A DNA stretch of 64,000 nucleotides from an uncultured Candidatus Saccharibacteria bacterium (GCA_964597675.1 CAZQYV010000004.1:5590-69589); one strand, 5' to 3'; numbered from the stretch's first letter, positions 3,563 to 62,252 are shown. A program made the numbers and translations. Notes: generated by a model not told the origin, from the sequence alone.

Positions 3563-3787
3563 ATGTCAATCAAAACCTTTTTAATGAAAAAAATGCTTGC
3601 TTCACAGATGAAGGGTGTGCCACAGGCAGAGCAGGAAAAAATATTTACAATGATTGAAAAGAATCCAGATCTTTTTCAGAAAATTGGCAGTGAAGTGCAA
3701 GAAGAAATGAAAAAAGGCAAGGACCAGATGGCAGCAACGATGGAGGTGGTAAAGAGATACGAGTCTGATTTAAAAAAACTGGTCTAA
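3563..3787 (+). CDS. Hypothetical small charged helical protein (74 aa)
   Basis: The ORF has coding-like K/E-rich composition. There is no recognisable family and the SD is weak. Confidence 0.35.
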   Translation: MSIKTFLMKKMLASQMKGVPQAEQEKIFTMIEKNPDLFQKIGSEVQEEMKKGKDQMAATMEVVKRYESDLKKLV

Positions 3788-7164: not shown

Positions 7165-9237
7165 TCACTCCACAGTCTTTGGAGACGGTGGGGGATTTGT
7201 ATTGAACCAAAATACTCTCTCTGGCGGAGCAAACTTGATGTTGCTCCCATACCAGATTGTCTCCGGCATTACGAACTTGATTCGTTCAAGTCCTGGACGC
7301 TCGTCAGAGATGATCTCGTACTTCACCTCACGGTCGTCGATCGTGAGGACAAACTTTTCGGTCCCTCGACCGGTTACCCAACCTACGAGAGTATCGCCAG
7401 CATTCACTGGGTTGTCGCCCGTTACGAGCCCTTTCTCGTTAGCAACGAGAAAGTAGGTAGCATCATCTGGCAGACGTAGGAAAGTTGGTGCTGACGCGAC
7501 GATCTCTGTAGAGAAAGGCTTCGATCGGTTGATTAAAGCACCTTCAGTAGAGACCTTTTCAACGATCAGGTTGTGCTTTCCGAGCGAGATGTCGCTCGGC
7601 ATAACAAACGTAATTGTCGAACCACTCTCATTCGTCTTCACAGACTGCAGTGTGGAGGCGATACCTCCGACACGCACAATGCATCCAGTAATGCAAAGAT
7701 CTTGACCCTTGAGGATCATTATCTTGTTCGGTGCAGGGGACTCGACCTCACCGTACATAGAGACGATTTCTGAGATCGTTCCGACACGATAGAGTGGATC
7801 AGCGGAGACGACCAGAGTCATTTTTTCAGACTCAATCGTTTCTGAGATGTTTTTCAATCTCACGACAATAGTGTACTCACCCGGCTCGATTGGAGCCATG
7901 AAAGTGACCATACCGTTTTCGACAGTCGTTGGCACCTCAATGCCATCGACAAGGATTGTTGTCGTCGCTTTTTCAGCAACGAGCCCGACACCCATGACAA
8001 CCACAAGTGCCTCTGGGGCAACAGTGCCAAGGGTCTCAACCTTCGGCACCAAGAGTGGCGGAAGTGGTGGCAGAGAAATCTTGACCACCTTATCCTTGGT
8101 GCTGTCTTTTGGATCAGCAACAAGGATGTAAGTGGACCCTATGGCATCAATGGATGCCCAAAAGGGGTTCACCGCGGACTTCACAATTCCCGGTATCGTG
8201 GTTGGTCCGTAGACCGTCCAAGACTCCTTGGTCTCGATATCGAGAAGAACGAAGGAATCAGATTTCCCAGGAATCTCGATGCCGAGATACTCGTTCACAG
8301 CCAATAAGGTGTACGAGCCCCTTAGGGCGATAGGTCGCAGGTTCCAGCGCGTTGCGCTGTAAACTTCCTTCGGGCTGCCATCGGTAAGCACCACAACGTG
8401 GTACTTACCATCCTTATCCTTGTAACTAGCAATTCCTTGCCAGTTATCGGGGTCAAAGGCTAGATCACAACATACTGCAGTTGTGACCTTTGCGGGGCGC
8501 GACGAAGATAGTAAGACTGTTGAATCGCCGTTAGACGAAATTCGCACAATCTCTGTTTCAGTTGTCTGTGGGTTACGCGGAGACCTTTCCGCAAGAAATG
8601 TCCCAGATTTTTCCCGCCAGACCTGGATGAGTTGGAATTCTGGATCAGTGAGGATGAGTTCCTCGTTCAGTGCGCAAGCGAGCGATGCGGGATTCTCCTT
8701 GAATGAGTAAATCCCAACATCGCCTATCATGGCCAGTCCAGTGTAGTACACCTTCCCATCGAGGGAAGGAAACTCGCCATGAAATTCATCCAAAGCGAGA
8801 TTATTCATTGTTCCGATGCACGGATTGAACGTGCGTTCTGGCGACATCCGTGTTGCCGTATGGTTGGAGGCAGCGTATGCGGGCACCTTTTTATACGGGA
8901 ACCCAACGGATGAATACACCATGGTTCCCAAAGTAGGTAATGTCGTCTGGAGGATGGTTCCATCCTCTGCCGTCTTTTCAATCGGCGGCGGGACTATTAG
9001 AGGGAATCCATTCTGTACTTGTGGCACAGACCACACTTTTTTTTGTGGGTCATATCTCATACCCATAAAGTTGGGATACGTTGCCATGATTGCAATTTCT
9101 CCATTGGAGGTCGCAACCAGAAACTGAATGTAATTACTTGAGTGGCTCGGCAGGGCAGGCAACGTCTCGACGACGAGGCCTTGACCGCTACACACAACCA
9201 CCCACAAAACAATTGAGAGAATGATTTTCCAGGTCAT
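7165..9237 (-). CDS. Secreted protein with an N-terminal beta-rich region and three C-terminal IPT/TIG-like Ig domains
   Basis: 690-aa ORF with a signal peptide (MTWKIILSIVLWVVVCSGQG). C-terminal Ig-like blocks include TTILVDGIEVP...GEYTIVVRL, IMILKGQDLCITGC...HNLIVEKVS and DTLVGWVTGRGTEKFVLTIDDREV. G+C is visibly higher than in flanking housekeeping genes. Confidence 0.6.
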   Translation of the reverse strand: MTWKIILSIVLWVVVCSGQGLVVETLPALPSHSSNYIQFLVATSNGEIAIMATYPNFMGMRYDPQKKVWSVPQVQNGFPLIVPPPIEKTAEDGTILQTTLPTLGTMVYSSVGFPYKKVPAYAASNHTATRMSPERTFNPCIGTMNNLALDEFHGEFPSLDGKVYYTGLAMIGDVGIYSFKENPASLACALNEELILTDPEFQLIQVWREKSGTFLAERSPRNPQTTETEIVRISSNGDSTVLLSSSRPAKVTTAVCCDLAFDPDNWQGIASYKDKDGKYHVVVLTDGSPKEVYSATRWNLRPIALRGSYTLLAVNEYLGIEIPGKSDSFVLLDIETKESWTVYGPTTIPGIVKSAVNPFWASIDAIGSTYILVADPKDSTKDKVVKISLPPLPPLLVPKVETLGTVAPEALVVVMGVGLVAEKATTTILVDGIEVPTTVENGMVTFMAPIEPGEYTIVVRLKNISETIESEKMTLVVSADPLYRVGTISEIVSMYGEVESPAPNKIMILKGQDLCITGCIVRVGGIASTLQSVKTNESGSTITFVMPSDISLGKHNLIVEKVSTEGALINRSKPFSTEIVASAPTFLRLPDDATYFLVANEKGLVTGDNPVNAGDTLVGWVTGRGTEKFVLTIDDREVKYEIISDERPGLERIKFVMPETIWYGSNIKFAPPERVFWFNTNPPPSPKTVE

Positions 9238-9579
9238 TCGTTCGTTTCCCCTTTATAAAGACGTATTGTTCAATACAAATATGTAAAAGAACTTATGCCC
9301 CGAATTATACATCATATTTATAAATTTGTACAGCATATTATCCACACCCCTATGCTATAGTCATATTTCGTTATATATTGAATATATGTCACTATCCATC
9401 GGTATGGTGTGAACGCAGCACGACATTACCTCGGCGAGATAGGTTCCAAGTCTATTCCATTTATGTTTACTATCAAGCTACCTCCAGCACAAAAGTTATT
9501 TGGGAATAAGTAAGGGGTGGGAGGGGGAGGAAAAACGACCCCCCGTGCCTTTATACGAGGTAACAATGTATGGACCTTC

Positions 9580-9609
9580 AAAAAAAAGCCCGATCTCTAC
9601 GACCGGGCT
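9580..9609 (-). terminator. Intrinsic terminator (minus strand) after the DUF5680-like gene
   Basis: The minus-strand reading is AGCCCGGTCGTAGAGATCGGGCT followed by TTTTTTTT: a 6-bp GC stem, 11-nt loop and 8-T run, immediately 3' of the stop at 9639. Confidence 0.7.
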
Positions 9610-9638
9610 ACCTATATTTTGTCAGCTCTAGATTTTGT

Positions 9639-11171: not shown

Positions 11172-11502
11172 TAAAATTATTCAGATTTTAGCGACCGACT
11201 GAGAAATCATAGGCCGCTTTCTTTTCTGTCAAAAATGGAATAAATTGGTCATACATAACCGTTGGAAGGGTAGATAGATTAATTTTACTTTCTCTCACTT
11301 TTCATATATCTTTAAAACATGTCACAGCTTTCTATAGGCACGGGAAGGACGCAACCTCACTTTTTGGTTACTCAAGCAATTCAAAGCAAATTCCGTTTTA
11401 TTTTGAGATAAAACTACCTCCGCCTTTGCGTAGGGGAATCGACTACGGCTTCACCAAGGAGAACTATTGGACCGTTACAACCGACAATTCGAGTAAGGTA
11501 TA

Positions 11503-11529
11503 GAAAAAGCCCGATCTCTGCGACCGGGC
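11503..11529 (-). terminator. Intrinsic terminator (minus strand), near-identical copy of the 9580-9609 terminator
   Basis: The minus-strand reading is AGCCCGGTCGCAGAGATCGGGCT followed by TTTTTC. It is 25/26 nt identical to the terminator at 9580-9609 and sits immediately 3' of the stop at 11555. Confidence 0.65.
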
Positions 11530-11554
11530 TTGCCTGAATACAGGCTTTTGTACA

Positions 11555-18214: not shown

Positions 18215-21118
18215 ATGAAGGAATATAACCATCTAAAAATAGAAAAAAAATGGCAATCGGTATGGGAGAAGAAAAAGATATTTCAGGCAAAGGATTCTGG
18301 CAAGAAAAAATTTTATGGTTTAATCGAGTTTCCATACCCCTCTGGTGATGGGCTCCATGTCGGACATGTACGAAGTAATACAGCGATGGATATTATTGCC
18401 CGTAAGCGCCGTATGGAGGGCTACAACGTGTTGTATCCCATCGGCTGGGATGCATTCGGCCTACCGACAGAAAACTATGCAATCAAGACAGGTATTGCTC
18501 CAGACAAGGTTACCAAGAAAAATACAGACACATTTAGACGGCAATTAAAGTCTTTGGGTTTTTCGTTTGATTGGTCTCGGGAAATAAACACAACTGATCC
18601 AAAATACTACAAATGGACACAGTGGTTGTTTTTGCAATTTTTGAAACATGATTTGGCATACAAGGCAAAAATAAATATCAATTGGTGTCCAAAAGATAAA
18701 ATCGGTTTGGCAAATGAAGAGGTGGTCAATGGGTGTTGCGAGAGATGTGGTACGCCAGTGGAAAAGAGAGAAAAGGAACAGTGGATGCTTCGTATTACAA
18801 AATACGCAGATCGACTTGATAAAGATCTCGACACAGTTGATTATCTTGAAAAGATCAAAGTGCAACAGAGAAATTGGATTGGGCGATCCGAGGGAGCAGA
18901 AATTGAATTCAAAATTAAAAAATCAAAAGTTAAAGATGGGGAATCCGATGAGATGATTGGAAAGGTTACAGTATTTACAACCCGCCCAGATACAATATAT
19001 GGAGCGACATATTTGGTTTTGGCACCAGAAGTTGCAGAGGGATTTATGATTCAGGATTCAGGATTTAGGAGTGGGGTCAGGAATGCAGATGAGTTGAAAA
19101 AATATATTCGTGATGCACGAGCAAAAAGTGATATAGAACGTGGAGATGGTAGTAAAGAAAAAACTGGTGTGGAAATAAAAGGGATTACTGCTATCAATCC
19201 AGTAAATAATGAAGAGATTCCTGTCTTTATTGCTGACTACGTCCTTGCGACATATGGTACGGGTGCAGTTATGGCTGTCCCTGCCCACGACGAACGTGAT
19301 TTTGCTTTTGCTAAGAAATATAATCTGCCAATACGACAGGTTATTGCACAATATATAGTTGATAAGAAATTTCCTCCAGTTAAAGAACAAAAAAATGTTG
19401 CCCGAAGTACAGTTCATGCAATTGTAAGAAATCCAAAAACAAATATGTATTTATGTTTGGAATGGAAGCATTTTCCATGGACCACATTTATTGTTGGTGG
19501 TGTAGAGGATGGTGAAAGTGCTATTGAGGCAGCACAGCGAGAGGTGTATGAAGAGACTGGTTATAAAAATATAAAAGTAACATACGACTTTTCAGATATT
19601 GTCTGTACGACATATAATGCCGCACATAAGAAAGAGAATCGTATTGCATACACCACATGTGTGTTTTTTGATCTAGTAAATGAGGAAAAAGATGAAATTG
19701 ATGTTGCTGAGAGTGATAAGCATGCACCCATCTGGCTTGAGCGTAAGGACATTACTGAAGCACGAATGACATGTGCTGAATTGCCGGTCTGGTTACATTA
19801 TATTGATACTAAAAACACACCTGTATACACAGGTTCTGGTGTCTTAATAAATTCGGGGGAACTTACTGGTGTATCGTCTGAAAAAGCCACCAATGAAATT
19901 ATAAAGCATGTTGGTGGCAAAGTCGTCACTAAATTCAAACTTCGAGATTGGGTATTTTCACGCCAGCGATACTGGGGTGATCCAATACCTGTGGTGCATT
20001 GTGAAAAATGTGGAATCGTACCACTACCTGAAAAGGATCTACCACTGAAACTTCCAAAAGTAAAAAAATATCAACCAACTGATACGGGTGAGTCGCCACT
20101 TGCTGGTATCGTATCGTGGGTTAATACAAAATGTCCAAAATGCAAAGGTAAGGCAAAACGTGAGACAGATACTATGCCCCAATGGGCTGGGTCATCATGG
20201 TATTTTCTTCGATATGCTGATCCAAAAAACAGCAAGAAATTTGCCGACCCAAAGAAATTAAAGTATTTCACTCCTGTAGACTGGTACAATGGTGGTATGG
20301 AGCACACTACTCTCCACTTACTTTACTCACGTTTCTGGCATAAGTTTTTGTATGATTTAGAACTGGTGCCAACTTCTGAGCCGTATCTAAAACGGACATC
20401 ACATGGGATGATATTGGCTGGCGGGGGGGAAAAGATGTCAAAATCAAAAGGTAATGTAATCAACCCAGACACAATTGTTAAAACATATGGTGCAGATACC
20501 CTACGAATGTACGAAATGTTCATGGGGCCATTTGATCAACCGATTCCATGGGCCGAGGAAAATATTATCGGGGTTCGTCGTTTTATCGAGCGTCTTTTCC
20601 GCTTGGAAAGAAAACTAGGTACATCAAAAAAAATTTTTGACACTGCATCATATAAAAAATTAGAAAACACACTTCACAAAACAATTGAAAAAGTTGGAAC
20701 AGATATAGAAAGTATGTCATTTAATACTGCTATTTCATCCATGATGATTTTGGTTAATGAAATGGAGAAAGCAGAGATGATAAGAACAAAAGATTTTGAA
20801 TTGCTTATTCGTATTATTTCTCCGTTTGCACCACACGTTGCAGAGGAAATGTGGTCACTACTTGGGCATAAAACACTTCTCGCCCTAGAAAAATGGCCAG
20901 AGGCAGATAGGGCAAAAATGGTTGATTCGGAGATGACAATCGCTATTCAAATCAATGGCAAAATTCGGGCAGAATTGACTGTTTCGGCTGATGCTACGGA
21001 AGCAGAGATTGTGGATAAGTCAAAAGAGATCCCGGAGGTTTCCAAGTGGTTTGTGGGCAAAGAGGTCAAGAAGGTCATTTATGTGCCTAAAAGACTGGTA
21101 AATTTCGTTATTTTGTAA
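18215..21118 (+). CDS. leuS: Leucyl-tRNA synthetase with an inserted NUDIX hydrolase domain (aa ~378-540)
   Basis: Class I aaRS motifs are present (HVGH, KMSKSKGN). The CP1/editing region is present. A ~160-aa insert between ...YNLPIRQVI and SGVLINSGEL carries a perfect Nudix box, GGVEDGESAIEAAQREVYEETGY. The C-terminal anticodon-binding region is intact. Confidence 0.9.
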   Translation: MKEYNHLKIEKKWQSVWEKKKIFQAKDSGKKKFYGLIEFPYPSGDGLHVGHVRSNTAMDIIARKRRMEGYNVLYPIGWDAFGLPTENYAIKTGIAPDKVTKKNTDTFRRQLKSLGFSFDWSREINTTDPKYYKWTQWLFLQFLKHDLAYKAKININWCPKDKIGLANEEVVNGCCERCGTPVEKREKEQWMLRITKYADRLDKDLDTVDYLEKIKVQQRNWIGRSEGAEIEFKIKKSKVKDGESDEMIGKVTVFTTRPDTIYGATYLVLAPEVAEGFMIQDSGFRSGVRNADELKKYIRDARAKSDIERGDGSKEKTGVEIKGITAINPVNNEEIPVFIADYVLATYGTGAVMAVPAHDERDFAFAKKYNLPIRQVIAQYIVDKKFPPVKEQKNVARSTVHAIVRNPKTNMYLCLEWKHFPWTTFIVGGVEDGESAIEAAQREVYEETGYKNIKVTYDFSDIVCTTYNAAHKKENRIAYTTCVFFDLVNEEKDEIDVAESDKHAPIWLERKDITEARMTCAELPVWLHYIDTKNTPVYTGSGVLINSGELTGVSSEKATNEIIKHVGGKVVTKFKLRDWVFSRQRYWGDPIPVVHCEKCGIVPLPEKDLPLKLPKVKKYQPTDTGESPLAGIVSWVNTKCPKCKGKAKRETDTMPQWAGSSWYFLRYADPKNSKKFADPKKLKYFTPVDWYNGGMEHTTLHLLYSRFWHKFLYDLELVPTSEPYLKRTSHGMILAGGGEKMSKSKGNVINPDTIVKTYGADTLRMYEMFMGPFDQPIPWAEENIIGVRRFIERLFRLERKLGTSKKIFDTASYKKLENTLHKTIEKVGTDIESMSFNTAISSMMILVNEMEKAEMIRTKDFELLIRIISPFAPHVAEEMWSLLGHKTLLALEKWPEADRAKMVDSEMTIAIQINGKIRAELTVSADATEAEIVDKSKEIPEVSKWFVGKEVKKVIYVPKRLVNFVIL

Positions 21119-25000: not shown

Positions 25001-25010
25001 AATTTTATGA

Positions 25011-25040
25011 CCCGCACGGAGACGTGCGGGTTGATTTTTT
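25011..25040 (+). terminator. Intrinsic terminator
   Basis: CCCGCACG-GAGA-CGTGCGGG followed by TTGATTTTTT. Confidence 0.7.
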
Positions 25041-25149
25041 ATAACGAAAACACCGAGCAGATTTGCTCGATGTGTGTGGGAGTGTGGAGTTTCACAAAAT
25101 ACAAAGCTCATTCACAGTCCATCAATTATAAAACCTGTGATATAAGTGT

Positions 25150-25385
25150 AATTTTGACAAAACCCACCACACTCCCGATTGCCCTGCCCGTGTAAACGGG
25201 GAGGAATGAGGACTCTTGGTTCTCATGGTTGTGTGGGGTTTACTCTGATCGCCAGAGAAGCCTCACAAAAGAGATGCGCCTGTTGGTACGACCCAGACAG
25301 GATTATGTACTAGCCTGGTTCAGCGCCAGAACTGGCGCCCTGCCGACCAGCCGAAAATGACATACTGCAATAAGTATAGCATACT
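25150..25385 (+). ncRNA. Candidate structured non-coding RNA (family not identified), G+C-rich island upstream of mnmA
   Basis: A ~200-nt stretch, markedly G+C-richer than its surroundings, has no credible ORF. It contains a GNRA hairpin (CCCGU-GUAA-ACGGG), a perfect 7-bp hairpin (GCGCCAG-AA-CUGGCGC), and nested helices CUCUG/CAGAG, CCUGU/ACAGG and CUGGU/ACCAG. Strand is uncertain; plus is favoured by the GUAA loop. Confidence 0.4.
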
Positions 25386-25464
25386 ACGTGATTTCTGTCA
25401 AGCAATTTAATATTTTCATATTGCATTTTGTTAATTTATGTTGTAAAATAAGGATATTATAGAT

Positions 25465-37077: not shown

Positions 37078-37476
37078 ATGACTGATACAAAAGAAAAATA
37101 CATAGAGGCGGTAGGACGACGAAAGACATCTGTTGCTCGCGTTCGTATTACTCCAGGATCAAAAATGTCATTTACAGTCAATGACAAGGATGTTCATGAC
37201 TATTTTCCGCTCGCTGATATGCATGGTATCGTCAAACAACCATTTACAGATATCGCTGAAAAATTTAAAGTTACCGCTCACATTGTCGGTGGTGGCATCC
37301 ACTCACAATCAGAAGCAATGCGACACGGTATTGCACGAGCACTTGTTGCATACAATATGGATTTTCGCCGACCACTCAAGAAAGAGGGAATGCTCAAACG
37401 AGATCCTCGCATGAAGGAGCGACGAAAGTTCGGCTTGAAGAAAGCTCGAAAATCTCCTCAATGGAGTAAGCGTTAA
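37078..37476 (+). CDS. rpsI: 30S ribosomal protein S9
   Basis: GRRKTSVARVRITPG ... the GGGIHSQSEAMRHGIARAL region ... RDPRMKERRKFGLKKARKSPQWSKR. Confidence 0.9.
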   Translation: MTDTKEKYIEAVGRRKTSVARVRITPGSKMSFTVNDKDVHDYFPLADMHGIVKQPFTDIAEKFKVTAHIVGGGIHSQSEAMRHGIARALVAYNMDFRRPLKKEGMLKRDPRMKERRKFGLKKARKSPQWSKR

Positions 37477-37492
37477 AACTTCGACTCCATAC

Positions 37493-37642
37493 TATTTTCT
37501 CACCGTCCTCGTCTTTTGTTGGATGAAGCGTATTTTGACCGGCCTTCCGCAGACTCCCTTTGGTCGCCCTTTCAGGGCACGTGCTCACGGCCAGTCAAAA
37601 TACTGTCATCCATGACAAAAGTCTGCGAATGGTGATAAAATA
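37493..37642 (+). repeat. ~150-nt structured repeat element, copy A (between rpsI and grpE)
   Basis: Homologous to 41119-41272 over its full length (blocks CCGTCCTCG, GCCTT-CGCAGA-TCC-TT, GGGCACGTGC-CACGGC, CTGCGAATG). The ends are inverted (TATTTTCTCACC ... GGTGATAAAATA). The internal hairpin CCCT-TTC-AGGG corresponds to CCCC-TGC-GGGG in copy B, a compensatory change. Confidence 0.6.
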
Positions 37643-37685
37643 CTATGGAATCTACGTATGACTAGACTAATATAGATAAAACAAC

Positions 37686-38285
37686 ATGATTGACGAAGAT
37701 ACAATAATTAATACTTCGGAGAATGAACCCGAGGTCGATACCGACCCAGGGGATGATGTTATTTTTGAGGAAAATACAGAAGTGACTGGTGTTGATTGTG
37801 CACAGAAGGTTAAAAAATTAAAGGATAGGATAAAGGAACTGGAAAAGAAAAATGCGGACCTTCTCGACTCATGGCAGAGAGATAAGGCGGATTTTTTGAA
37901 CGCACGTCGTTTGGATGCTGAAAATCAAAAAAACTTTGCAATGTTTGCAAAGGAAGATATTGCCACAGAAATTATTCCCGTTCTTGATTCATTTGAATCA
38001 GCGTTTAAAAACAAAGAAGCTTGGGAAAAAGTTGATAAAAACTGGCGTACAGGGGTTGAATACATTCACTCACAGCTTGTTGGAGTACTTGGAAATCATG
38101 GCGTGACAGTTATAAATCCTATTGGTGATATGTTTGATCACAATCGTGATGAAGCTATTGAAAATGTATCCGTGGAAAACAAAAATGATGATGGAAAAAT
38201 AATGGAGGTGGTGAGTGTGGGGTATAAATTACAGAATAAAATTATACGAGCACCGAAGGTGAAGGTGGGGAAAATAAGCGAGTAA
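37686..38285 (+). CDS. grpE: Nucleotide exchange factor GrpE
   Basis: Coiled-coil N-terminus. ...IIPVLDSFESAF...GVEYIHSQLVGVLGNHGVTVINPIGDMFDHNRDEAI.... Confidence 0.85.
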   Translation: MIDEDTIINTSENEPEVDTDPGDDVIFEENTEVTGVDCAQKVKKLKDRIKELEKKNADLLDSWQRDKADFLNARRLDAENQKNFAMFAKEDIATEIIPVLDSFESAFKNKEAWEKVDKNWRTGVEYIHSQLVGVLGNHGVTVINPIGDMFDHNRDEAIENVSVENKNDDGKIMEVVSVGYKLQNKIIRAPKVKVGKISE

Positions 38286-38303
38286 ACGGTAAGAGGTAAG
38301 GAG

Positions 38304-38333
38304 TAAAAAATCCCGACCAGAGCGCTGGTCGGG
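38304..38333 (-). terminator. Intrinsic terminator for the minus-strand small-peptide genes (the hairpin also lies just 3' of grpE)
   Basis: CCCGACCAG-AGCG-CTGGTCGGG. The T-run (TTTTTT) is present only on the minus-strand reading. Confidence 0.55.
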
Positions 38334-38342
38334 AATCGTTGA

Positions 38343-38432
38343 TTAGAAATCATCATAATCACCTGGCATTGGTTGTGTCATCAGAACAACCATCAAGATG
38401 ACAAATAGAAGTAAACCTATTACAGGTTCCAT
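38343..38432 (-). CDS. Small hydrophobic peptide (29 aa), not in the ORF track
   Basis: MEPVIGLLLFVILMVVLMTQPMPGDYDDF. A strong SD (GAGGAAG) lies 4-5 nt upstream of the ATG, and the stop is followed by the terminator at 38304-38333. Confidence 0.4.
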   Translation of the reverse strand: MEPVIGLLLFVILMVVLMTQPMPGDYDDF

Positions 38433-38505
38433 ACATCTTCCTCTAATTCTATTGTAATAGAAAAACCGCCAGCTGTCGACGGTCTTTCCGTCGCCTATTG
38501 GCGGG

Positions 38506-38688
38506 TCATAGAAACAGGTACTTCGTGGCTACTGATATACTGATTGACAGTATGCACACACGAAACCACTTTGTCATAACATCCTCTGTTGTGGCTGATT
38601 TTTGAGTGGCTACCACGAAGCCAAATGTCAAGATAATTGCCAGCACCCAAAAGGACATTATCACCAGTCTGAATACCTCATTTGGCAT
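38506..38688 (-). CDS. Small two-TM membrane protein (60 aa)
   Basis: The internal Met of tool ORF 38506-38751 was used: MPNEVFRLVIMSFWVLAIILTFGFVVATQKSATTEDVMTKWFRVCILSISISVATKYLFL. It is preceded by AGGAGAG at the ideal distance and followed by a structured hairpin plus T-run. Confidence 0.45.
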   Translation of the reverse strand: MPNEVFRLVIMSFWVLAIILTFGFVVATQKSATTEDVMTKWFRVCILSISISVATKYLFL

Positions 38689-39069
38689 TTTTACTCTCCT
38701 ATCACTATTATAGCAAATAATAGTATGAATGTCAAGTGCACAAATGAGCACAGAAACTGTATAATTTCATACACAAAACATGAATATCACACCAGCACGA
38801 GGTAATTTCATAGAAAAAATCGTCCGTGACCAACAGGGGCGACTTGTTCGTGCAACTTTTTGTGTGTATGAGTGTGGTGGGCGTGTAAAAGCTCGTCTGG
38901 TACAGGCCACAGTAATTGACGATATATCTACGTCTGAGACACCTGTTCTGTCAGCGTATATTCCACAGATTATTTTTGAAACAGCACTTTTTGAATCTCG
39001 TCTTGTTTCACCATATTTTTCTTCCAATACATTATATTTTTCTGGTTCAAAACCACGAGCTCCCACATA

Positions 39070-39160
39070 TACGAAATAACGAATAAAAACACGAATAACT
39101 ACGAATAAGAAGTTTTATTATTCGTATTAATTCGTAACCAATTCGTTACTTCGTATTTTT
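39070..39160. promoter_or_regulatory. Dyad-symmetric array of ACGAATAA half-sites upstream of dnaK, including a perfect 9-N9-9 inverted repeat TACGAATAA-N9-TTATTCGTA (39100-39126)
   Basis: Three direct half-sites (aACGAATAA, cACGAATAA, tACGAATAA) are mirrored by three inverted ones (TTATTCGTa, aATTCGTAa, aATTCGTTa), centred ~80 nt upstream of the dnaK ATG. The geometry is identical to CIRCE (9-N9-9) but the sequence is different. Confidence 0.5.
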
Positions 39161-39192
39161 TATTTAATAATACTTAACTACAAAACAAACAC

Positions 39193-41118
39193 ATGAGTAA
39201 AATTATAGGAATTGATCTTGGTACAACCAACTCGGCTGTTGCAGTTATGGAGGTTGGCCAACCAAAAATACTTGAAAACAGTGAAGGTGCACGTACAACA
39301 CCATCTATTATTGCAGTCTCTAAAACTGGCGAGCGACTTGTTGGTCTTTTGGCACGACGTCAGGCGGTAACAAATCCAAAAAATACCATCTTTGGTATCA
39401 AGCGATTTATTGGCCACACATTTGATGATGTCGCGGTTCAAAAAGATAAAGCAATTGTTCCATTTGAAGTTTTAAAATCTGCAACAAACGGTGTAAAAGT
39501 AAAAATGAATGACCCTTCAAATCCTTCAGGGCAGGCAAGAGAGTATACACCTGAGGAGATTTCAGCAATGGTTATTGGTAAATTGAAAGCTGATGCAGAA
39601 GCAAAGGTTGGTGAAAAAATAACTCAGGCAATTATTACTGTCCCTGCATATTTTAACGATTCACAACGACAGGCAACAAAGGACGCTGGTCAGATTGCTG
39701 GTCTTGAAGTATTGCGTATTATAAACGAGCCAACTGCAGCAGCGCTTGCATACGGATTTGATAAGGATCGAAAAGATGAAAAGATTGTGGTCTTTGACTT
39801 TGGAGGTGGTACATTCGATGTCTCTGTCTTGGAGGTTGATGTTGATGAGGTTGGTGGAGATATTAAGGTAAAGGCAACAGACGGTGACTCACATTTGGGA
39901 GGCAAGGATATTGATCAAAAAATCATCAATTATCTTGCTGATGAGTTTAAAAAAGAGACGGGTATCGATCTTCGTGGAGACACGTTGGCACTCCAGCGTC
40001 TTGATGAAGCGGCAGAAAAAGCAAAAATTGAACTCTCTAGTGCAATGGAGTCAGAAATAAATATTCCATTCATCACATCTGATTCATCAGGGCCACGACA
40101 CCTTTTGATCAAACTTTCACGAGCAAGACTTGAGGAATTGACCGAAGAGTTTATTGAACGAGCAATGGCAATCACAAAGCGCGCTATGGATGCATCGGGC
40201 TTTAGTACATCGCAAATCAATGAGGTGATTTTAGTTGGTGGGCAAACTCGCATGCCAAAAATGGCTGAAAAAGTGAAAGCATTTTTTGGCAAGGAGCCAA
40301 ACAAATCAATTAACCCAGATGAAGTTGTTGCTCTCGGTGCTGCAATTCAAGGTGGTATCCTAGCAGGGGATGTCAAAGATGTTCTATTGCTCGATGTTAT
40401 ACCGCTTTCTCTAGGTATTGAAACAATGGGAGGCGTTGCAACAAAGTTGATTGAACGAAACACCACAATCCCTGCTTCTCGATCACAGGTATTCTCGACC
40501 GCTGCAGATAACCAAACATCAGTAGAAATTCATATTGTGCAGGGTGAACGTGCAATGGCAGGGGATAACAAATCACTTGGGCGATTTATTCTCGACGGTA
40601 TTCCACCAGCACCACGAGGTATGCCACAAGTAGAGGTGACCTTTGATGTAGATGCAAACGGTATTTTGGCTGTCAAAGCAAAGGACAAAGCAACAAATAA
40701 AGAGCAATCTATTCGCATCGAGGCAAGATCAGGGCTATCAAAGGAAGATATCGAAAAGATGCAGAAAGATGCAGAGGCACATAGTGCAGAGGATCAAAAG
40801 AAAAAAGATTTGGTAGAGGTCAAAAACATTGCAGAGCAACTGATCTACACATCAGAGAAATCTCTTCGCGACGCTGGTGAGAAGGTTCCCGCAGATCTCC
40901 GAGTCTCTATTGAAAACATGATTACTGATTTGAAAAAATCAAAGGATGGGGATGATATGGAGCAGATAAAGAAACAGACATCTGATCTGTCTTCGGAACT
41001 TTCGAAGATTGGGGAGATATTAAATAAATCTGCACAGACAGAAACACCTCCACAGGGTGAAAACACTGATGGTCCGGTGCGTGAAGCTGAATTCGAGGAG
41101 AAAAAGGATTCTCAATAA
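39193..41118 (+). CDS. dnaK: Chaperone DnaK (Hsp70)
   Basis: [18 protein letters not shown], and the [11 protein letters not shown] signatures. Confidence 0.95.
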
Positions 41119-41272
41119 TATTTTCTTCCATCGTCCTCGAATTTTGTAAAATGCACCATACTTTTTTCTGCCTTACGCAGATTCCTTTCAGTCACCCCTG
41201 CGGGGCACGTGCCCACGGCTAGAAAAAAGTATGAGCATTTTTAACAAAATCCTGCGAATGATTCAGAAAATA
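41119..41272 (+). repeat. ~150-nt structured repeat element, copy B (between dnaK and dnaJ)
   Basis: See copy A. Same orientation. It has inverted ends (TATTTTCT ... AGAAAATA) and a perfect 12-nt palindrome GGGCACGTGCCC. Confidence 0.6.
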
Positions 41273-41390
41273 TTATTGAGAATTAAGTGACTGTGAAAGA
41301 CCTTAGCATCTGCTAAGGTCTTTCAAACAACACTTGTAATATGCTATTTAGTCAAGTATACTAATCAAGTAAAAAAACTATAATATACCT

Positions 41391-46303: not shown

Positions 46304-46330
46304 TATGATTCACAATCTTAATCTTGTTGA

Positions 46331-46423
46331 ATTATAATGATTTTAGAGACTTCGCAAGGCGGGTAGCCGAGACTTGAGGAATTTTTCAGCAGAAAAATAT
46401 CCGTGCTCTAAAATCATTATAAT
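46331..46423. repeat. Hairpin-bounded intergenic repeat, copy C (18-bp perfect outer inverted repeat and a conserved ~57-nt core)
   Basis: The outer IR is ATTATAATGATTTTAGAG / CTCTAAAATCATTATAAT. The core is ACTTCGCAAGGCGGGTAGCCGAGACTTGAGGAATTTTTCAGCAGAAAAATATCCGTG. It lies between gltX and the M23-peptidase gene. Confidence 0.6.
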
Positions 46424-50199: not shown

Positions 50200-50230
50200 T
50201 GTACTGATAGAATTTTAAATTCTTGGCTCA

Positions 50231-50320
50231 GTGTGTCTTTCTCCTCACACACATAAAAGTCTACTGACTTTTTGCTCTGCTCGGCCCGTCGGCCTGCGCA
50301 AGGTTCGGATAAAGACACAC
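50231..50320. repeat. Hairpin-bounded intergenic repeat, copy E (inverted orientation relative to C and D)
   Basis: The outer IR is GTGTGTCTTTCTCC / GGATAAAGACACAC. The reverse complement of the core (..CGCAGGCCGACGGGC..AAAAAGTC-AGTAG-GACTTTT..) matches the cores of copies C and D. It lies between mraY and ftsW. Confidence 0.5.
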
Positions 50321-50342
50321 CTTCGCCGTAATTTAAAACATA

Positions 50343-54770: not shown

Positions 54771-54998
54771 AGTATTAGTTTAGCACGGAATGCGAGCAGA
54801 GAAATCCACAGAAAAATACAAATTGACGGCGAAGATATATAATTTTTGGAGCCTTTCGCAGAAGTTTAGAAAACAAGGAGGTATTCCGACATTGTTTTCT
54901 TGAACGACGAGAAGTTCGCTAGCCCAGCAGGGCTAGACAGATTGCTCCAAAAATTATGTATCAAGCCAAGTAATTTGTATTTTTACAAGATATATTAT

Positions 54999-57421: not shown

Positions 57422-58399
57422 TTAATATAGCTTTACACCAATCGCTTCACGTACCAGTTCCATCTTTTTCTCGGCCTTTTGCTGTGCACGTTTACCACCT
57501 TCACGTAAAATATCAAGCACGTAATCTCGATCATCTGCCAGTTGTGCTCGTTTCTCACGTAAAGGCGCACAGAATAATTCGATTTTTTCGATCAATGTTT
57601 CCTTTGCCTCTTTGTAGCCCAATCCACCATTAGTGTAGCGAGAAGCGAGAGCAAGTCGTTCATCATCTGTCGCAAACAATTTATATAACTTAAATATAGT
57701 ATCTTCCTCTGGATTTTTTGGCTCATCCACACCTCTTGAATCAGTCGGTATAGCCATTACAGCTTTTTTGATTTCATCGTGTGTTGCAAAAAGTGGAATT
57801 GTATTACCATAACTTTTGCTCATCTTGCGTCCATCGGTACCCGGTACAACAGCAACTTCTTCAAGAATTTTTGCTTCTGGTAATTTGAAAACGTCACCAA
57901 ATATACGATTAAATTTTTCTGCAGTATCCCTCGCATATTCAACATGCTGTTTTTGATCCTGACCAACGGGTACAATATCTGTATCGTATATCAAAATATC
58001 TGATGCCATAAGCATTGGATAATTAAAAGTACCGACTGAAATTTCCTTGTCCTTTGCTTCAGCATCTTTATAGGCATGGGCACGCATGAGGTAAGGCATT
58101 GTTGTTATTGTGTCAAAAATCCAGGCCAACTCTGTGTGCTCGGAAACATCTGATTGTTTGAAAATAACAGATTCTTTTGGATTGAGACCCAATGCCAAAT
58201 AGTCTAAAGCAACATCAAAAACACCCTGAGACATTTCATCCTTGTTTTGAATAAAATTAAGCGCATGATAGTCGGGAATAAAGAAATAGCAATTGTAGTC
58301 CTTTTGCATATTTACAAACTGTCTCATTGCCCCGAAATAATTGCCAATATGAGGCCGGCCTGTTGGCTTGACCCCAGATAGCAGTGTTTTTTTAGTCAT
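57422..58399 (-). CDS. trpS: Tryptophanyl-tRNA synthetase
   Basis: LSGVKPTGRPHIGNYFGA (HIGH-type) and GRKMSKSYGN (KMSKS) motifs. 325 aa. Confidence 0.9.
   Translation of the reverse strand: MTKKTLLSGVKPTGRPHIGNYFGAMRQFVNMQKDYNCYFFIPDYHALNFIQNKDEMSQGVFDVALDYLALGLNPKESVIFKQSDVSEHTELAWIFDTITTMPYLMRAHAYKDAEAKDKEISVGTFNYPMLMASDILIYDTDIVPVGQDQKQHVEYARDTAEKFNRIFGDVFKLPEAKILEEVAVVPGTDGRKMSKSYGNTIPLFATHDEIKKAVMAIPTDSRGVDEPKNPEEDTIFKLYKLFATDDERLALASRYTNGGLGYKEAKETLIEKIELFCAPLREKRAQLADDRDYVLDILREGGKRAQQKAEKKMELVREAIGVKLY
58297..58365. repeat. 69-nt direct repeat, copy 1 (the genuine trpS codons ~11-33)
   Basis: AGTCCTTTTGCATATTTACAAACTGTCTCATTGCCCCGAAATAATTGCCAATATGAGGCCGGCCTGTTG. It is 66/69 nt identical to 60339-60407. 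Confidence 0.8.
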
Positions 58400-58425: not shown

Positions 58426-60252
58426 TTATTCAAAGTCTCTCTTTTGTTTTTGAAAAGCTTCAGAATACCTCCCACCCAAACTCAAAAGTTCCTGATGTTT
58501 GCCTTTTTCAACGACTTTACCTTCATGCAATACAATTATTTCATCAGCTCGTTTTATTGTTGCAAAATTGTGCGAAATTAAAATTGCTGATGTGGTATCT
58601 GGTAAATTTTCTATTTCATTAAAAATAATTTCTGCAGAATCAGAATCAATCGAAGCAGTTGGCTCATCCAAAACAAGAAACCTTTTACCTTTATAGAATG
58701 CCCTAGCAATAGCCAACTTTTGTCTCTGCCCTTTTGATGGCTCTACCCCACCAAATTCAACACCGATCATGTGGTCATATTTACCAGTTAACTCTTCTAT
58801 AAATCCACTAGTTGTACTTTTGTCTGCTGAACCTTTAACATTCTCCATGTCTATTTCCGCAACATTTTGTCCAACAGCAATCGATTCTTTAGCTGAAAAA
58901 TTATACGTGGTAAAGTCTTGCAATAATACCCCAAGGTATTTCCACCATTCATTTATATCAACATCTCTTAAATCAATCCCGTTTACTGTAATTTTTCCTT
59001 CAACAGGATCATGAATACGAAGCAACAAGCGAACAAGAGTCGACTTACCGGCTGCATTGTTTCCAACCAAACCTATTTTCTGTCCAGGCATTATTTTAAA
59101 AGAAATATTTTCAAGAGCCCATTTTTCTTGTCCTGGATACCTGAAGGAAACATTGTCAAAAACAACAGTCGGGGCTAAATCAAGGTTTAATTTTTTTGGA
59201 TTTTTTGAATACTCAAGAACTGTTGTCTCATCGAGAACAGCCAGAATATCTGTGGCGTATAAATTCCTCTCAAGTAATCTTGCGGTATTAGAAAGCAGAC
59301 TTGATATCCACCCACTTACCCGATTTAATGCTTGAAACGCAAAAACCACTGTTCCAATAGCTATCATGCCAGCAATTGCCTCATTTATTATCACAGCGGT
59401 ACCAACAAACAAACCTATGGCCGCAAAAATACTTGCACTTACTTTTGCTATTGTTCTCCAATTTTCTGTTGATAGTTGTTCATTTCTAAATTTATCTAGA
59501 ATATCCTTAATATCCGTCAAAAATTTTCCACCAGCTTGATAGAGTCTGCTGTCGATAACTGAAACCTTGCTACTAAAAAATCTTCTTAAGTCCTGATATC
59601 TTCTCTGCTCAGGACTGTTTTTTGCCCATATTCCCCAAATTCTCCCACCATATTTTATTTCAATCCAAAAATCAGGAATTGAGGTTACAAAAACAAGAAT
59701 AAATACTCGCCAATCAATAAAAGCAGCGGCAATAGCACCAACTACTATTCCACAGAATATTTCTAAATTAGAAAACTGCATATCGACTACGTTTATGATT
59801 GGATAAATACCATTATTGAATGCCCTTTGAAGTCTGTCTTGAAACTTTGGGTCTTCATATTGGGCAATATCAAATGATCCTCGTTTTCTTAGCGCCATTA
59901 AATCAAACAAATCCTGCATTTTTAAATATAAATGACGGTCAAGAAACGATCGAACATTTCTTATCACCGTGGGAACAGCAGTTAAAACAGCAAACATAAT
60001 TAATGCTGGATAGGTTACGGTAATATCCTGCATTTTGACACCTTCGATAATTTTATCAATTAAAATACCAAGGGCCCTTGCAGAAAAAATAGGAACTACA
60101 CCAATAATGACAGTCAATAATATCATCGTGCCGGTAAGCCACGGCATTTCATTAATTAAAATTCTAAAAATTCTGATTGTATTTCTAGCCAGGTCCTTAA
60201 AATTTTCTATACTACTTTTTGCCTTTACCTCATCAGATTTAGTTGTCTCCAT
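58426..60252 (-). CDS. ABC exporter, fused permease/ATPase (MsbA/lipid-A-exporter-like)
   Basis: Six N-terminal TM helices. Walker A (GNNAAGKST), the ABC signature (SKGQRQKLAIARA) and Walker B (FLVLDEPTASID). Confidence 0.8.
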   Translation of the reverse strand: METTKSDEVKAKSSIENFKDLARNTIRIFRILINEMPWLTGTMILLTVIIGVVPIFSARALGILIDKIIEGVKMQDITVTYPALIMFAVLTAVPTVIRNVRSFLDRHLYLKMQDLFDLMALRKRGSFDIAQYEDPKFQDRLQRAFNNGIYPIINVVDMQFSNLEIFCGIVVGAIAAAFIDWRVFILVFVTSIPDFWIEIKYGGRIWGIWAKNSPEQRRYQDLRRFFSSKVSVIDSRLYQAGGKFLTDIKDILDKFRNEQLSTENWRTIAKVSASIFAAIGLFVGTAVIINEAIAGMIAIGTVVFAFQALNRVSGWISSLLSNTARLLERNLYATDILAVLDETTVLEYSKNPKKLNLDLAPTVVFDNVSFRYPGQEKWALENISFKIMPGQKIGLVGNNAAGKSTLVRLLLRIHDPVEGKITVNGIDLRDVDINEWWKYLGVLLQDFTTYNFSAKESIAVGQNVAEIDMENVKGSADKSTTSGFIEELTGKYDHMIGVEFGGVEPSKGQRQKLAIARAFYKGKRFLVLDEPTASIDSDSAEIIFNEIENLPDTTSAILISHNFATIKRADEIIVLHEGKVVEKGKHQELLSLGGRYSEAFQKQKRDFE

Positions 60253-60338: not shown

Positions 60339-60407
60339 AGTCTTTTTGCATATTTACAAACTGTCTCATCGCCCCGAAATAATTGCCAATGTGAGGCCGG
60401 CCTGTTG
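60339..60407. repeat. 69-nt direct repeat, copy 2: a trpS 5'-coding fragment abutting the stop codon of the LUD-domain gene
   Basis: AGTCTTTTTGCATATTTACAAACTGTCTCATCGCCCCGAAATAATTGCCAATGTGAGGCCGGCCTGTTG. The two internal differences from copy 1 are synonymous in the trpS frame (GCA->GCG Ala, CAT->CAC His). Confidence 0.8.
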
Positions 60408-60408
60408 T

Positions 60409-61026
60409 CTAAAAGCCAAGTGGTTCTTCGACGAGAATGACAGTGATTTTTCGTCCTATCATAGGATTTTCTTTATGTAGAATAAGTGTCTTAGCATATG
60501 TTGTGCCAAATCCATATACGCTTTTCAATCGCTCATCCTCGAGTGGTATAACATATTCCTCTACTCGATGTAGTGCACTAGTGGTATCTGGTGTGATCTT
60601 CTGAGCACCGACAACAAAGATCAGGTTTGGCGAGGTAAAAACAATGTGAGGCAACTGACTGCCTGTGTTTGAAACAATAACAAGCTCGCCCGTTTCTGTC
60701 AGAGCATGAGCACTACCCAGATAATAATCCGATAGAACAGATTGTCGTCTAAGTAACATCTGCTTTTCAGGATCTTTCTCATTTACAATATCGGCATGTA
60801 AATTCTTCCATCCGTGTGTGCCTGATTTTAGATAATCAATATAACCAATCTCTTCCAATGTTCTTGACGAGCCATTCATTACCGACACTCCGGTTGGTAT
60901 CATTTTTTTAATTTCTGCCAATGCATCTTCCTTTGTATGTACAACTATCGGGGTAAAATTATTCGCTTGTAATGCGTCTGTTACCTTTTTAATACTTTCA
61001 TTTGTTGCGATTTGTGAATAATCCAT
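60409..61026 (-). CDS. LUD (lactate-utilisation LutC / YkgG-like, DUF162) domain protein
   Basis: 205 aa. ...LGSAHALTETGELVIVSNTGSQLPHIVFTSPNLIFVVGAQKI... is the typical LUD-domain core. Confidence 0.55.
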   Translation of the reverse strand: MDYSQIATNESIKKVTDALQANNFTPIVVHTKEDALAEIKKMIPTGVSVMNGSSRTLEEIGYIDYLKSGTHGWKNLHADIVNEKDPEKQMLLRRQSVLSDYYLGSAHALTETGELVIVSNTGSQLPHIVFTSPNLIFVVGAQKITPDTTSALHRVEEYVIPLEDERLKSVYGFGTTYAKTLILHKENPMIGRKITVILVEEPLGF

Positions 61027-62108: not shown

Positions 62109-62137
62109 ATATATTATACAAAACTACGGCGCACGTG

Positions 62138-62223
62138 TACCTTTTGAGGAGACTTCGCAAGGCCGACGGGCAGAGACTTGATAAATTTTTCAGCAGAAAA
62201 ATATTCGTGCTCCTCAAAAGGTA
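62138..62223. repeat. Hairpin-bounded intergenic repeat, copy D
   Basis: The outer IR is TACCTTTTGAGGAG / CTCCTCAAAAGGTA. The core ACTTCGCAAGGCCGACGGGCAGAGACTTGATAAATTTTTCAGCAGAAAAATATTCGTG is ~85% identical to copy C. It lies between the histidine-kinase and methyltransferase genes. Confidence 0.6.
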
Positions 62224-62252
62224 TGCGAAGCCAAGAGTTTTGCTAGGTAGTC

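Follow-up and report, generated by a model that had tools for sequence, protein, structure and literature searches.

Small intergenic palindromes that fold into hairpins have been described in several groups of bacteria, and some of them act on the transcripts that carry them: Correia hairpins are cut by RNase III and can create promoters, ERIC elements (with RNase E) can alter mRNA stability, and QMITE2 elements are found in 3′ untranslated regions (3′ UTRs) (PMC10969869). In the literature searched, we found no description of such elements in bacteria of the Candidate Phyla Radiation (CPR). Here we consider two palindromic elements, copies A and B, which lie on either side of grpE-dnaK in a 64 000-nt stretch of DNA from an uncultured bacterium catalogued as Candidatus Saccharibacteria (GCA_964597675.1 CAZQYV010000004.1:5590-69589; the whole stretch is called the window below, and coordinates count from its first letter). 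On balance, the two are probably copies, of some age and since diverged, of a palindromic (fold-back) repeat of c. 150–175 nt that is non-autonomous and co-transcribed in 3′ UTRs.

Genes and elements at this locus follow in the order rplM, rpsI, copy A, grpE, dnaK, copy B and dnaJ; the 900 nt between grpE and dnaK include a conserved open reading frame (ORF) of 99 aa, and the window has 39.8% G+C. Homologues of its GrpE occur in metagenome-assembled genomes named as Patescibacteria, Paceibacterota, Minisyncoccia or Zambryskibacteria, and the host genome belongs to the Patescibacteria and is Paceibacteria/Minisyncoccia-like. Genomes of this clade are streamlined, at about 1 Mb. Copies A and B (from here on W1 and W2; W3–W6 are the other elements of the window, and L-numbers denote loci fetched from elsewhere) are 3628 nt apart and co-oriented, and can be aligned over their whole length at about 73% identity (72% over 163 nt, E=5e-8, by blastn within the window); neither nhmmer nor blastn detected a further copy of this type in the 64 kb. 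A preliminary description of this DNA had located the pair correctly, and had recognized the common orientation and the homology throughout, but the complete hairpins are longer than it supposed: W1 occupies 37487–37648 (+) and W2 41108–41283 (+). W1 starts 10 nt past the rpsI stop codon (37474–37476) and ends 37 nt before the grpE ATG (37686), while W2 begins 8 nt before the dnaK stop codon (41116–41118) and ends 107 nt before the dnaJ ATG (41391), its outer stem (ATTCTCAATAATATTTTCT/AGAAAATATTATTGAGAAT) covering the last 11 nt of dnaK, stop codon included. The two have no conserved ORF in common. They are 3′ trailers of rpsI and dnaK and not, as had been thought, 5′ leaders of grpE and dnaJ, and they touch no ribosome-binding site.

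The end of dnaK itself deserves a remark. The protein terminates in ...EEKKDSQ* in the window (41108–41118) and in L004 (9420–9446), and in ...EEKK* or ...KKPEDNK* in other relatives. In both of the genomes with the DSQ* ending, TATTTTC..., the start of a W2-type unit, comes right after the stop codon, and the last three dnaK codons may have been supplied by an old insertion of the element.

Folded as RNA, each copy forms one long, almost fully paired hairpin. The minimum free energies of the complete hairpins are -62.2 kcal/mol (W1) and -66.4 kcal/mol (W2), with c. 57–66 pairs; within the narrower limits first described they are -61.5 (A) and -46.1 kcal/mol (B), which correspond to z-scores of -7.4 and -5.9 relative to sequences shuffled by dinucleotide. 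A model built from the two copies (R1) scores them at 184.6 and 194.4 bits respectively. In W1, the 5′ junction motif CGTCCTCG (37504–37511, +; identical in W2 and in the third copy discussed below) stands directly 5′ of a long stem, whose 5′ arm (37513–37544, +), which holds most of the compensatory differences from W2, pairs with the 3′ arm (37589–37621, +). Between the arms is the apical domain (37545–37588, +), the best-conserved part, which includes a small hairpin (37567–37577) and the palindrome GCACGTGC (37577–37584); directly 3′ of the stem comes the 3′ junction motif TCTGCGAATGG (37622–37632, +). W2 has the same layout, all on the + strand: CGTCCTCG at 41132–41139, a 5′ arm at 41140–41172 paired with a 3′ arm at 41217–41250, an apical domain at 41173–41216 with its small hairpin (41195–41205) and GCACGTGC (41205–41212, so that the shared palindrome noticed at the outset is indeed present in both copies), and the 3′ junction motif CCTGCGAATG at 41251–41260. 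In each copy, an inverted second version of the 3′ motif overlaps the 5′ edge of the apex and the end of the 5′ arm (TCTGCGGAAGG in W1, minus strand, 37553→37543; TCTGCGTAAGG in W2, minus strand, 41181→41171). Conservation is far weaker in the stem than in the 44-nt apex and in the two junction motifs, of which the 5′ one reads CGTCCTCG and the 3′ one YCTGCGAATG. The inverted termini already reported are exact in B (TATTTTCT/AGAAAATA) and match at 7 of 8 positions in A (TATTTTCT/ATAAAATA). A scan for intrinsic terminators (a short GC-rich stem followed by a U tract) found none at the 3′ end of either element, where the flanks read ...AAAATACTATGG and ...TATTGAGAAT. The 3′ arm of W1 carries a promoter-like ATGACA-18-TAAAAT (37612–37641, +) that faces grpE, by match to consensus only.

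The pairing has been kept while the sequence changed. The small hairpin is CCCT-TTC-AGGG in W1 and CCCC-TGC-GGGG in W2, a true compensatory change from U-A to C-G, and this difference, already reported in the preliminary description, is one of 11 of its kind: among 45 consensus pairs of A and B, 11 are changed on both sides, and 100% of cells are still paired, as against 0–3 such pairs when partners are slid. The earlier conclusion that covariation reveals a conserved RNA or DNA secondary structure is therefore upheld. Intrastrand template switching during replication can both create and maintain hairpins, giving apparently compensatory changes of two arms in one step (PMC8794818). The covariation shows that pairing is maintained; it does not prove selection for an RNA, since both strands pair equally well and template switching can mimic compensatory changes.

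A third copy lies elsewhere. A pattern representing the conserved apex was scanned in a one-genome-per-species collection and in metagenomes, and matches were tested with R1. The former yielded three matches, all in high-GC genomes and none confirmed by R1; the latter yielded 17 loci, of which two (L013 and L017) were confirmed. L013 differs from the window at one position in c. 230 nt aligned across the element and the rpsI-grpE region, and probably represents the same strain. L017, from the same metagenome as L013, carries a copy between the dnaB stop codon and the recR start codon (R1, 167.7 bits). A 150-nt unit (TTTTCYTCCATCG...GATTCAGAAAA; 41121–41270, +, in W2) is about 98% identical in W2 and L017, with three differences, and the likeness ends abruptly at both ends of this unit. 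Outside it, the flanks are unrelated in sequence from one locus to the other, yet self-complementary within each (CTCAATAATA/TATTATTGAG vs. CTTCAGTTTTCCT/AGAAAACTGAAG); at W1, W2 and L017 alike, the element flanks are inverted and not direct repeats. The W1/W2 element is thus dispersed (rpsI|grpE, dnaK|dnaJ, dnaB|recR) and occupies 3′ UTRs or intercistronic spacers directly after stop codons, and L017 is a third and recent copy. A and B do not form a functional bracket around grpE-dnaK. No similarity to these elements was found in phage or plasmid collections.

What, then, occupies the corresponding positions in relatives? Related grpE loci were fetched (n=11); R1 was run on L004–L011, and L029–L035 were inspected by eye and with two other models only (R2 and R3, which represent a second family of elements, termed a/b, introduced below). 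The search of related loci with a model built from the two copies, as proposed in the preliminary description, gave no orthologue of A or B in L004–L011, where the sole R1 match was weak (L004, E=0.77) and was traced to a member of the a/b family. Between rpsI and grpE, the occupant varies: the slot is taken by a different long-hairpin element of subfamily b in L009, whose GrpE is 89% identical; by a relative of that element, also subfamily b, in L010; by a third type (type 2) in L005 and L011; by a fourth (subfamily a) in L007 and L032; by a decayed 5′ remnant in L034; and by a terminator only, with no element, in L004 and L029. In L035 (86% identical), a different gene lies 7 nt upstream of grpE. 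After dnaK, L007 and L010 have elements with orthologous flanks and unrelated interiors, the outermost stem showing one compensatory change from G...C to A...T, and dnaJ is downstream in neither. The synteny rpsI-grpE-orf-dnaK is found in most of the fetched lineages (all but L035), whether elements are present or not. Element slots, in short, turn over quickly between relatives.

Other long palindromes were seen in the course of this comparison. In L029 (Zambryskibacteria), further unrelated, AT-rich long hairpins lie at 1273–1410, 1843–1960, 3640–3752 and 8082–8615; such hairpins occupy nearly every spacer of the rpsM-rplQ operon as well as the position after dnaK. It appears that these genomes generally contain long intergenic palindromes.

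The a/b family accounts for the remaining four elements of the window, which were recognized by eye and afterwards with covariance models. W3 (46327–46420, −) lies between gltX and an M23 peptidase gene and is co-oriented with them; W4 (50226–50335, +) has a GT4 (MraY-like) gene on one side and ftsW on the other, and is antisense to the two; W5 (54822–54975, −), of subfamily b with a long P3, lies between scpA and scpB; and W6 (62119–62242, −) lies between genes for a histidine kinase and a methyltransferase, ending 11 nt before the downstream ATG. MAFFT gave no alignment that joined the subfamilies, so a model (R2) was seeded with three well-aligned copies (alignment A7: W3, W6 and L007_A), and iteration led to R3, built from alignment A8. 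R2 finds eight further copies at E<0.01, including W4, and R3 reaches subfamily b, including W5 (E=4.7e-5, filters off). Together they link W3–W6 and 11 copies in relatives, at E-values from 1e-25 to 3e-3. The strongest R2 values are those of its own seeds (W3, W6 and L007_A), so that the R2/R3 values of W3 (c. 1e-19 to 1e-25) and W6 (c. 1e-18 to 1e-24) are high by construction, as are R3 values for members of A8; W4 is one of these (R3, E=2e-13), and the independent evidence for it is the R2 match (E=0.009). In A8, both partners differ in 14 of 20 pairs (4–9 in slid controls), and the paired fraction of cells is 91%. The common plan comprises a closing stem (P1), a hairpin (P2) whose loop is U(G/A)CU, the motif YCTCG, a short (GGCC-CGTC-GGCC) or long helix, and the motif CYTGCG(N)AAKG, and the elements have recurring outer-stem modules in common. 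Their neighbours are housekeeping genes unrelated to heat shock.

W1 and W2 resemble these elements in being long closing hairpins in the same genome and in the same kind of slot, and in having an internal helix that is bordered immediately by YCTCG at its 5′ end and by CYTGCG(N)AAKG at its 3′ end. They differ in having an apical domain of their own and in lacking the P2 hairpin with its U(G/A)CU loop. R2 and R3 do not detect W1 or W2 (no match at E<=5 to 10, filters off), and a hidden Markov model of W1/W2 (nhmmer) gives weak matches only, the best in the window being W5, with two of the four top matches in relatives falling on elements. A common origin of the two groups is suggested by these likenesses, and no more than suggested, because the motifs are short, R2 and R3 miss W1/W2, and the matches of the hidden Markov model are weak.

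Selected RNAs normally show a clear excess of wobble pairs on the transcribed strand. The helices of the elements are c. 93% Watson–Crick, and G.T pairs, of which c. 1170 pairs include 38 on the strand of the element and 49 on its complement, are balanced; the antisense strand often has the more stable fold, by 5–14 kcal/mol. As the wobble pairs favour neither strand, it may be at the DNA level that pairing is maintained.

We return to the fold-back repeat. Such an element would spread as DNA through a step that requires the hairpin, or would be copied and corrected by intrastrand template switching, and we propose that either process could account for joint change of the two arms with no strand bias among wobble pairs. 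New copies, or new interiors, would land inside existing palindromes; this could explain why a 98%-identical unit sits within unrelated, self-complementary outer stems, and why interiors are swapped. Transcription of rpsI or dnaK would then place a near-perfect RNA hairpin of 60–75 bp at the end of the message, which could act as a 3′ stabilizer, a barrier to read-through or a target for RNase III, much as for Correia and ERIC hairpins (PMC10969869). The element may also supply a weak outward promoter, such as the promoter-like site in the 3′ arm of W1. Any effect on the expression of grpE, dnaK or dnaJ would be a by-product of the landing site, with no heat-shock circuit involved.

Several observations weigh against this interpretation. 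A search for duplicated target sites found none: the flanks are TA...TA at W1 and W2, a palindrome and so uninformative, and CT...AG at L017. No transposase or other mobility gene was found by a Pfam scan of c. 50 ORFs of the window, and only three copies of the W1/W2 type were found in all the collections scanned. Mobility itself was not observed, and there is no strain-level pair of empty and filled sites. The much better conservation of the apical 44 nt and junction motifs than of the stem is a sequence-specific constraint that a purely selfish hairpin does not need. Palindromic elements are strikingly dense around grpE-dnaK, in ten lineages. Finally, 17 of the 19 catalogued elements are co-oriented with their flanking genes (the exceptions, W4 and L007 5220→5080, are antisense to theirs), a bias equally expected for a selected RNA.

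An appreciable, if minor, possibility is that these are structured RNAs selected by the host, serving as processing sites, 3′-end stabilizers or unconventional terminators in polycistronic or 3′-terminal mRNAs; a conserved factor would read the junction motifs (YCUCG and CYUGCG(N)AAKG) and conserved loops, and W1 and W2 would be composite versions. The extensive covariation and the orientation bias both fit this proposal, as does the high occupancy of slots around grpE-dnaK in the ten lineages; moreover, genera with no more than 65–75% identity in GrpE have the same conserved a/b-family sequences at junctions and loops, and W6, L017, W3 and W4 end 11–30 nt before the next start codon and so must be co-transcribed. 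The absence of wobble strand asymmetry in helices that are so largely Watson–Crick would, however, be unusual for selected RNAs, and the occupants of the same slot are exchanged between families, or lost, in close relatives. Two copies are antisense, and there is no match in Rfam: no family of Rfam 15 reached its gathering threshold in the window, and E-value mode added only hairpin noise of a miRNA-like kind, below threshold. Nor is the orientation bias specific to RNA: gene orientation is confounded with the direction of replication, and the bias fits transcription or replication alike because gene orientation and GC skew flip together at c. 44–45 kb.

There is a modest chance that the elements are not selfish DNA at all but a signal specific to Patescibacteria, consisting of motifs and loops displayed on freely co-varying and sometimes nested helices, and read by a dedicated factor. 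The conserved apex, the junction motifs common to the second family, the nesting and the density around grpE-dnaK are the grounds for entertaining such a recognition system. The factor may be an operon-punctuating RNase or RNA-binding protein, or else a novel single-strand DNA transposase or recombinase, and W1 and W2 may then be composite members, their apical domain containing an inverted second core.

It is unlikely that the elements are functional sites at the DNA level, that is, hairpins or cruciforms for protein binding, recombination, or replication-fork or terminus functions. The symmetry of pairing on the two strands would suit such a role, as would the conservation of the palindromic core GCACGTGC and of the junction motifs. 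The six elements of the window, moreover, all lie at 37.5–62.2 kb, with none at 1–37 kb, and so extend from 7 kb before to 18 kb after a terminus-like switch in skew. However, no known type of site matches them, the rapid turnover of slot occupants speaks against an essential chromosomal role, and the elements avoid only coding sequence, as selfish repeats do. The switch itself is a conspicuous feature of the window: between 44000 and 45100 the sign of the GC skew and the orientation of genes (from + to −, convergent) change together, as at a replication terminus.

The main idea of the preliminary description was that the leaders of grpE and dnaJ carry a heat-shock cis-regulatory RNA, be it a thermometer or an element for processing or stability. 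The attraction of this is obvious, since chaperone genes adjoin both copies, relatives often have palindromic elements near grpE-dnaK, and the promoter-like site in the 3′ arm of W1 faces grpE; it is nonetheless very improbable, and largely refuted. A nearly identical copy (c. 98%) lies at dnaB|recR, so that the type is not restricted to heat-shock or virulence genes, and R1 found no orthologue in the leaders of L004–L011 (L029–L035 being outside that search); in L007 and L010 an element follows dnaK with no dnaJ downstream. RNA thermometers of the ROSE or FourU type pair with the Shine–Dalgarno sequence or start codon in the 5′ UTR, and are marginally stable, melting at c. 30–45 °C. W1 and W2 do not pair with the start region, and at -62 and -66 kcal/mol they are far too stable to melt at heat-shock temperatures. 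The occlusion of a Shine–Dalgarno sequence that folding might have revealed does not occur, because the elements end 37 and 107 nt before the start codons, and because W2 is separated from dnaJ by a perfect palindrome (41295–41324) and promoter-like boxes, including a TATAAT at 41379–41384, and so lies upstream of these boxes. The CIRCE/HrcA operator (TTAGCACTC-N9-GAGTGCTAA) has no match in the window with up to three mismatches, and no Rfam thermoregulator rises above noise. On the grounds of dispersal, slot turnover, position and stability we have dropped the annotation as a heat-shock riboregulator.

The palindrome between W2 and dnaJ is of interest in its own right. It has the form GAAAGACCTTAGCA-TC-TGCTAAGGTCTTTC and is not a CIRCE element; related GACCTT...AAGGTC hairpins are found upstream of grpE in two relatives (L007, c. 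3612–3645; L009, 1885–1910), and this type of palindrome could be an operator of chaperone genes.

Barely credible, finally, is a local duplication scar, in which a segmental duplication or an insertion of 3.6 kb with grpE-dnaK would have left A and B behind as direct repeats: their common orientation and their spacing of 3628 nt on either side of grpE-dnaK would fit, and a 72-nt trpS fragment (58297–58368 and 60339–60410) provides a true case elsewhere in the window, but the idea is contradicted by the third copy at an unrelated locus (L017), by the ancestral rpsI-grpE-orf-dnaK synteny of most lineages (all but L035) with or without elements, and by the preservation of every pair across 27% divergence, which is not neutral decay. 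The two copies of the trpS fragment are 94% identical; the first is the HIGH-motif region of a gene for a class I W/Y aminoacyl-tRNA synthetase (57422–58399, −) and the second an intergenic fragment, and the pair brackets an ABC-transporter gene (58426–60252, −) in the manner of an insertion or duplication scar.

Some further features of the region may be recorded here. The conserved ORF between grpE and dnaK (38780–39079, +; 99–103 aa, no Pfam match) is present in most loci that cover that region; along with it, the opposite strand has small, membrane-like ORFs, and a bidirectional terminator lies at 38311–38334. The AT-rich spacers upstream of dnaK in the window (39080–39192) and in L029 (3640–3752) are made of short repeats of the CGAATAA/TTCGTA type, and similar repeats occur in a spacer of a ribosomal-protein operon from Zambryskibacteria. 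TATAAT boxes lie some 7–10 nt upstream of start codons, at 41379–41384 in the window and upstream of grpE and asnB in L004, L007, L009 and L010, with no obvious Shine–Dalgarno sequence, which suggests leaderless or very short-leader mRNAs in this clade. The leucyl-tRNA synthetase (18215–21118, +) has an inserted NUDIX domain at residues 397–513. Non-coding gaps of 380–460 nt at 25001–25464, 9238–9638 and 11172–11554 have a G+C content at or above the window average, a structured look and no Rfam or tRNA match, and could be unrecognized RNAs; a search of the window found no tRNA or tmRNA-like genes.

The W1/W2 locus carries a warning for annotation, in that a covarying structure beside grpE, dnaK and dnaJ invited a tempting but wrong label, now removed, and compensatory changes between two copies in one genome, paired equally well on both strands, were no proof of function as RNA. 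It also reveals, in this patescibacterial clade, several families of long, nested palindromic repeats in operon spacers and 3′ UTRs, with quick turnover and clustering in particular slots. If it is true that such elements shape mRNA ends or operon structure, they would be relevant to annotation and to an understanding of gene expression in bacteria that cannot be cultured alone.

How do W1 and W2 compare with systems already known? The defining motifs or neighbouring genes were absent for a range of candidates, judged by their consensus sequences, and these were dropped: hammerhead or twister-type ribozymes, kink-turns and T-loops; integron attC sites, Xer/dif sites, IS200/IS605 ends and retron msr/msd; and the template/variable repeats of diversity-generating retroelements, TIGR arrays and DNA uptake sequences. 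Nor have the elements any sequence relationship to ERIC, Correia, RPE or BOX/REP elements, the closest analogues. The MITE-like (miniature inverted-repeat transposable element) alternative offered at the outset came nearer the mark than the heat-shock reading: the W1/W2-type elements are 158–176 nt long and have no coding capacity, their ends are inverted (TTTTCT...AGAAAA, the entire element being an inverted repeat), and copies are dispersed at rpsI|grpE, dnaK|dnaJ and dnaB|recR, the last flanked by unrelated genes. Target sites are not duplicated, however, and the label is not fully earned.

The Correia (NEMIS) elements of Neisseria are also 100–155 nt long, with inverted ends, and are co-transcribed, and their capacity to create promoters recalls the promoter-like site of W1 (PMC10969869). 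They differ in having 26-bp terminal inverted repeats, a duplicated TA target and hundreds of near-identical copies, whereas W1 and W2 lack a clear target duplication, are palindromic over their whole length and have few, divergent copies. REP/REPIN, pneumococcal BOX, RUP and SPRITE elements are likewise small intergenic hairpins with compensatory stem changes and a presence in 3′ UTRs, and BOX elements also resemble W1 and W2 in their modular build (PMC3116915, PMC3049150, PMC3184786). REP sequences are 20–40 nt long, GC-rich, very numerous and tied to a RAYT transposase, of which none was seen in the window; in size, in composition and in number (three copies), W1/W2 fall outside the REP/REPIN class.

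The RPE of Rickettsia are palindromic repeats of c. 150 nt in a reduced, host-dependent genome, and can enter coding sequences (PMC10969869). The overlap of the W2 outer stem with the last three codons and stop codon of dnaK is a parallel, although RPE typically lie in frame inside genes and W2 overlaps only the extreme 3′ end; the parallel is further tempered by the same DSQ* ending in L004, which makes the contribution of the element uncertain. The ERIC (or IRU) elements, too, are imperfect palindromes of c. 127–150 nt, confined to transcribed DNA between genes and frequently found at gene 3′ ends, and they vary in presence or absence at orthologous sites while their pairing is preserved (PMC10969869). 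They are enterobacterial, hence of another phylum, and have no sequence similarity to W1/W2, which in contrast are of very low copy number (three found) and have locus-specific outer stems that suggest the nesting of one palindrome within another.

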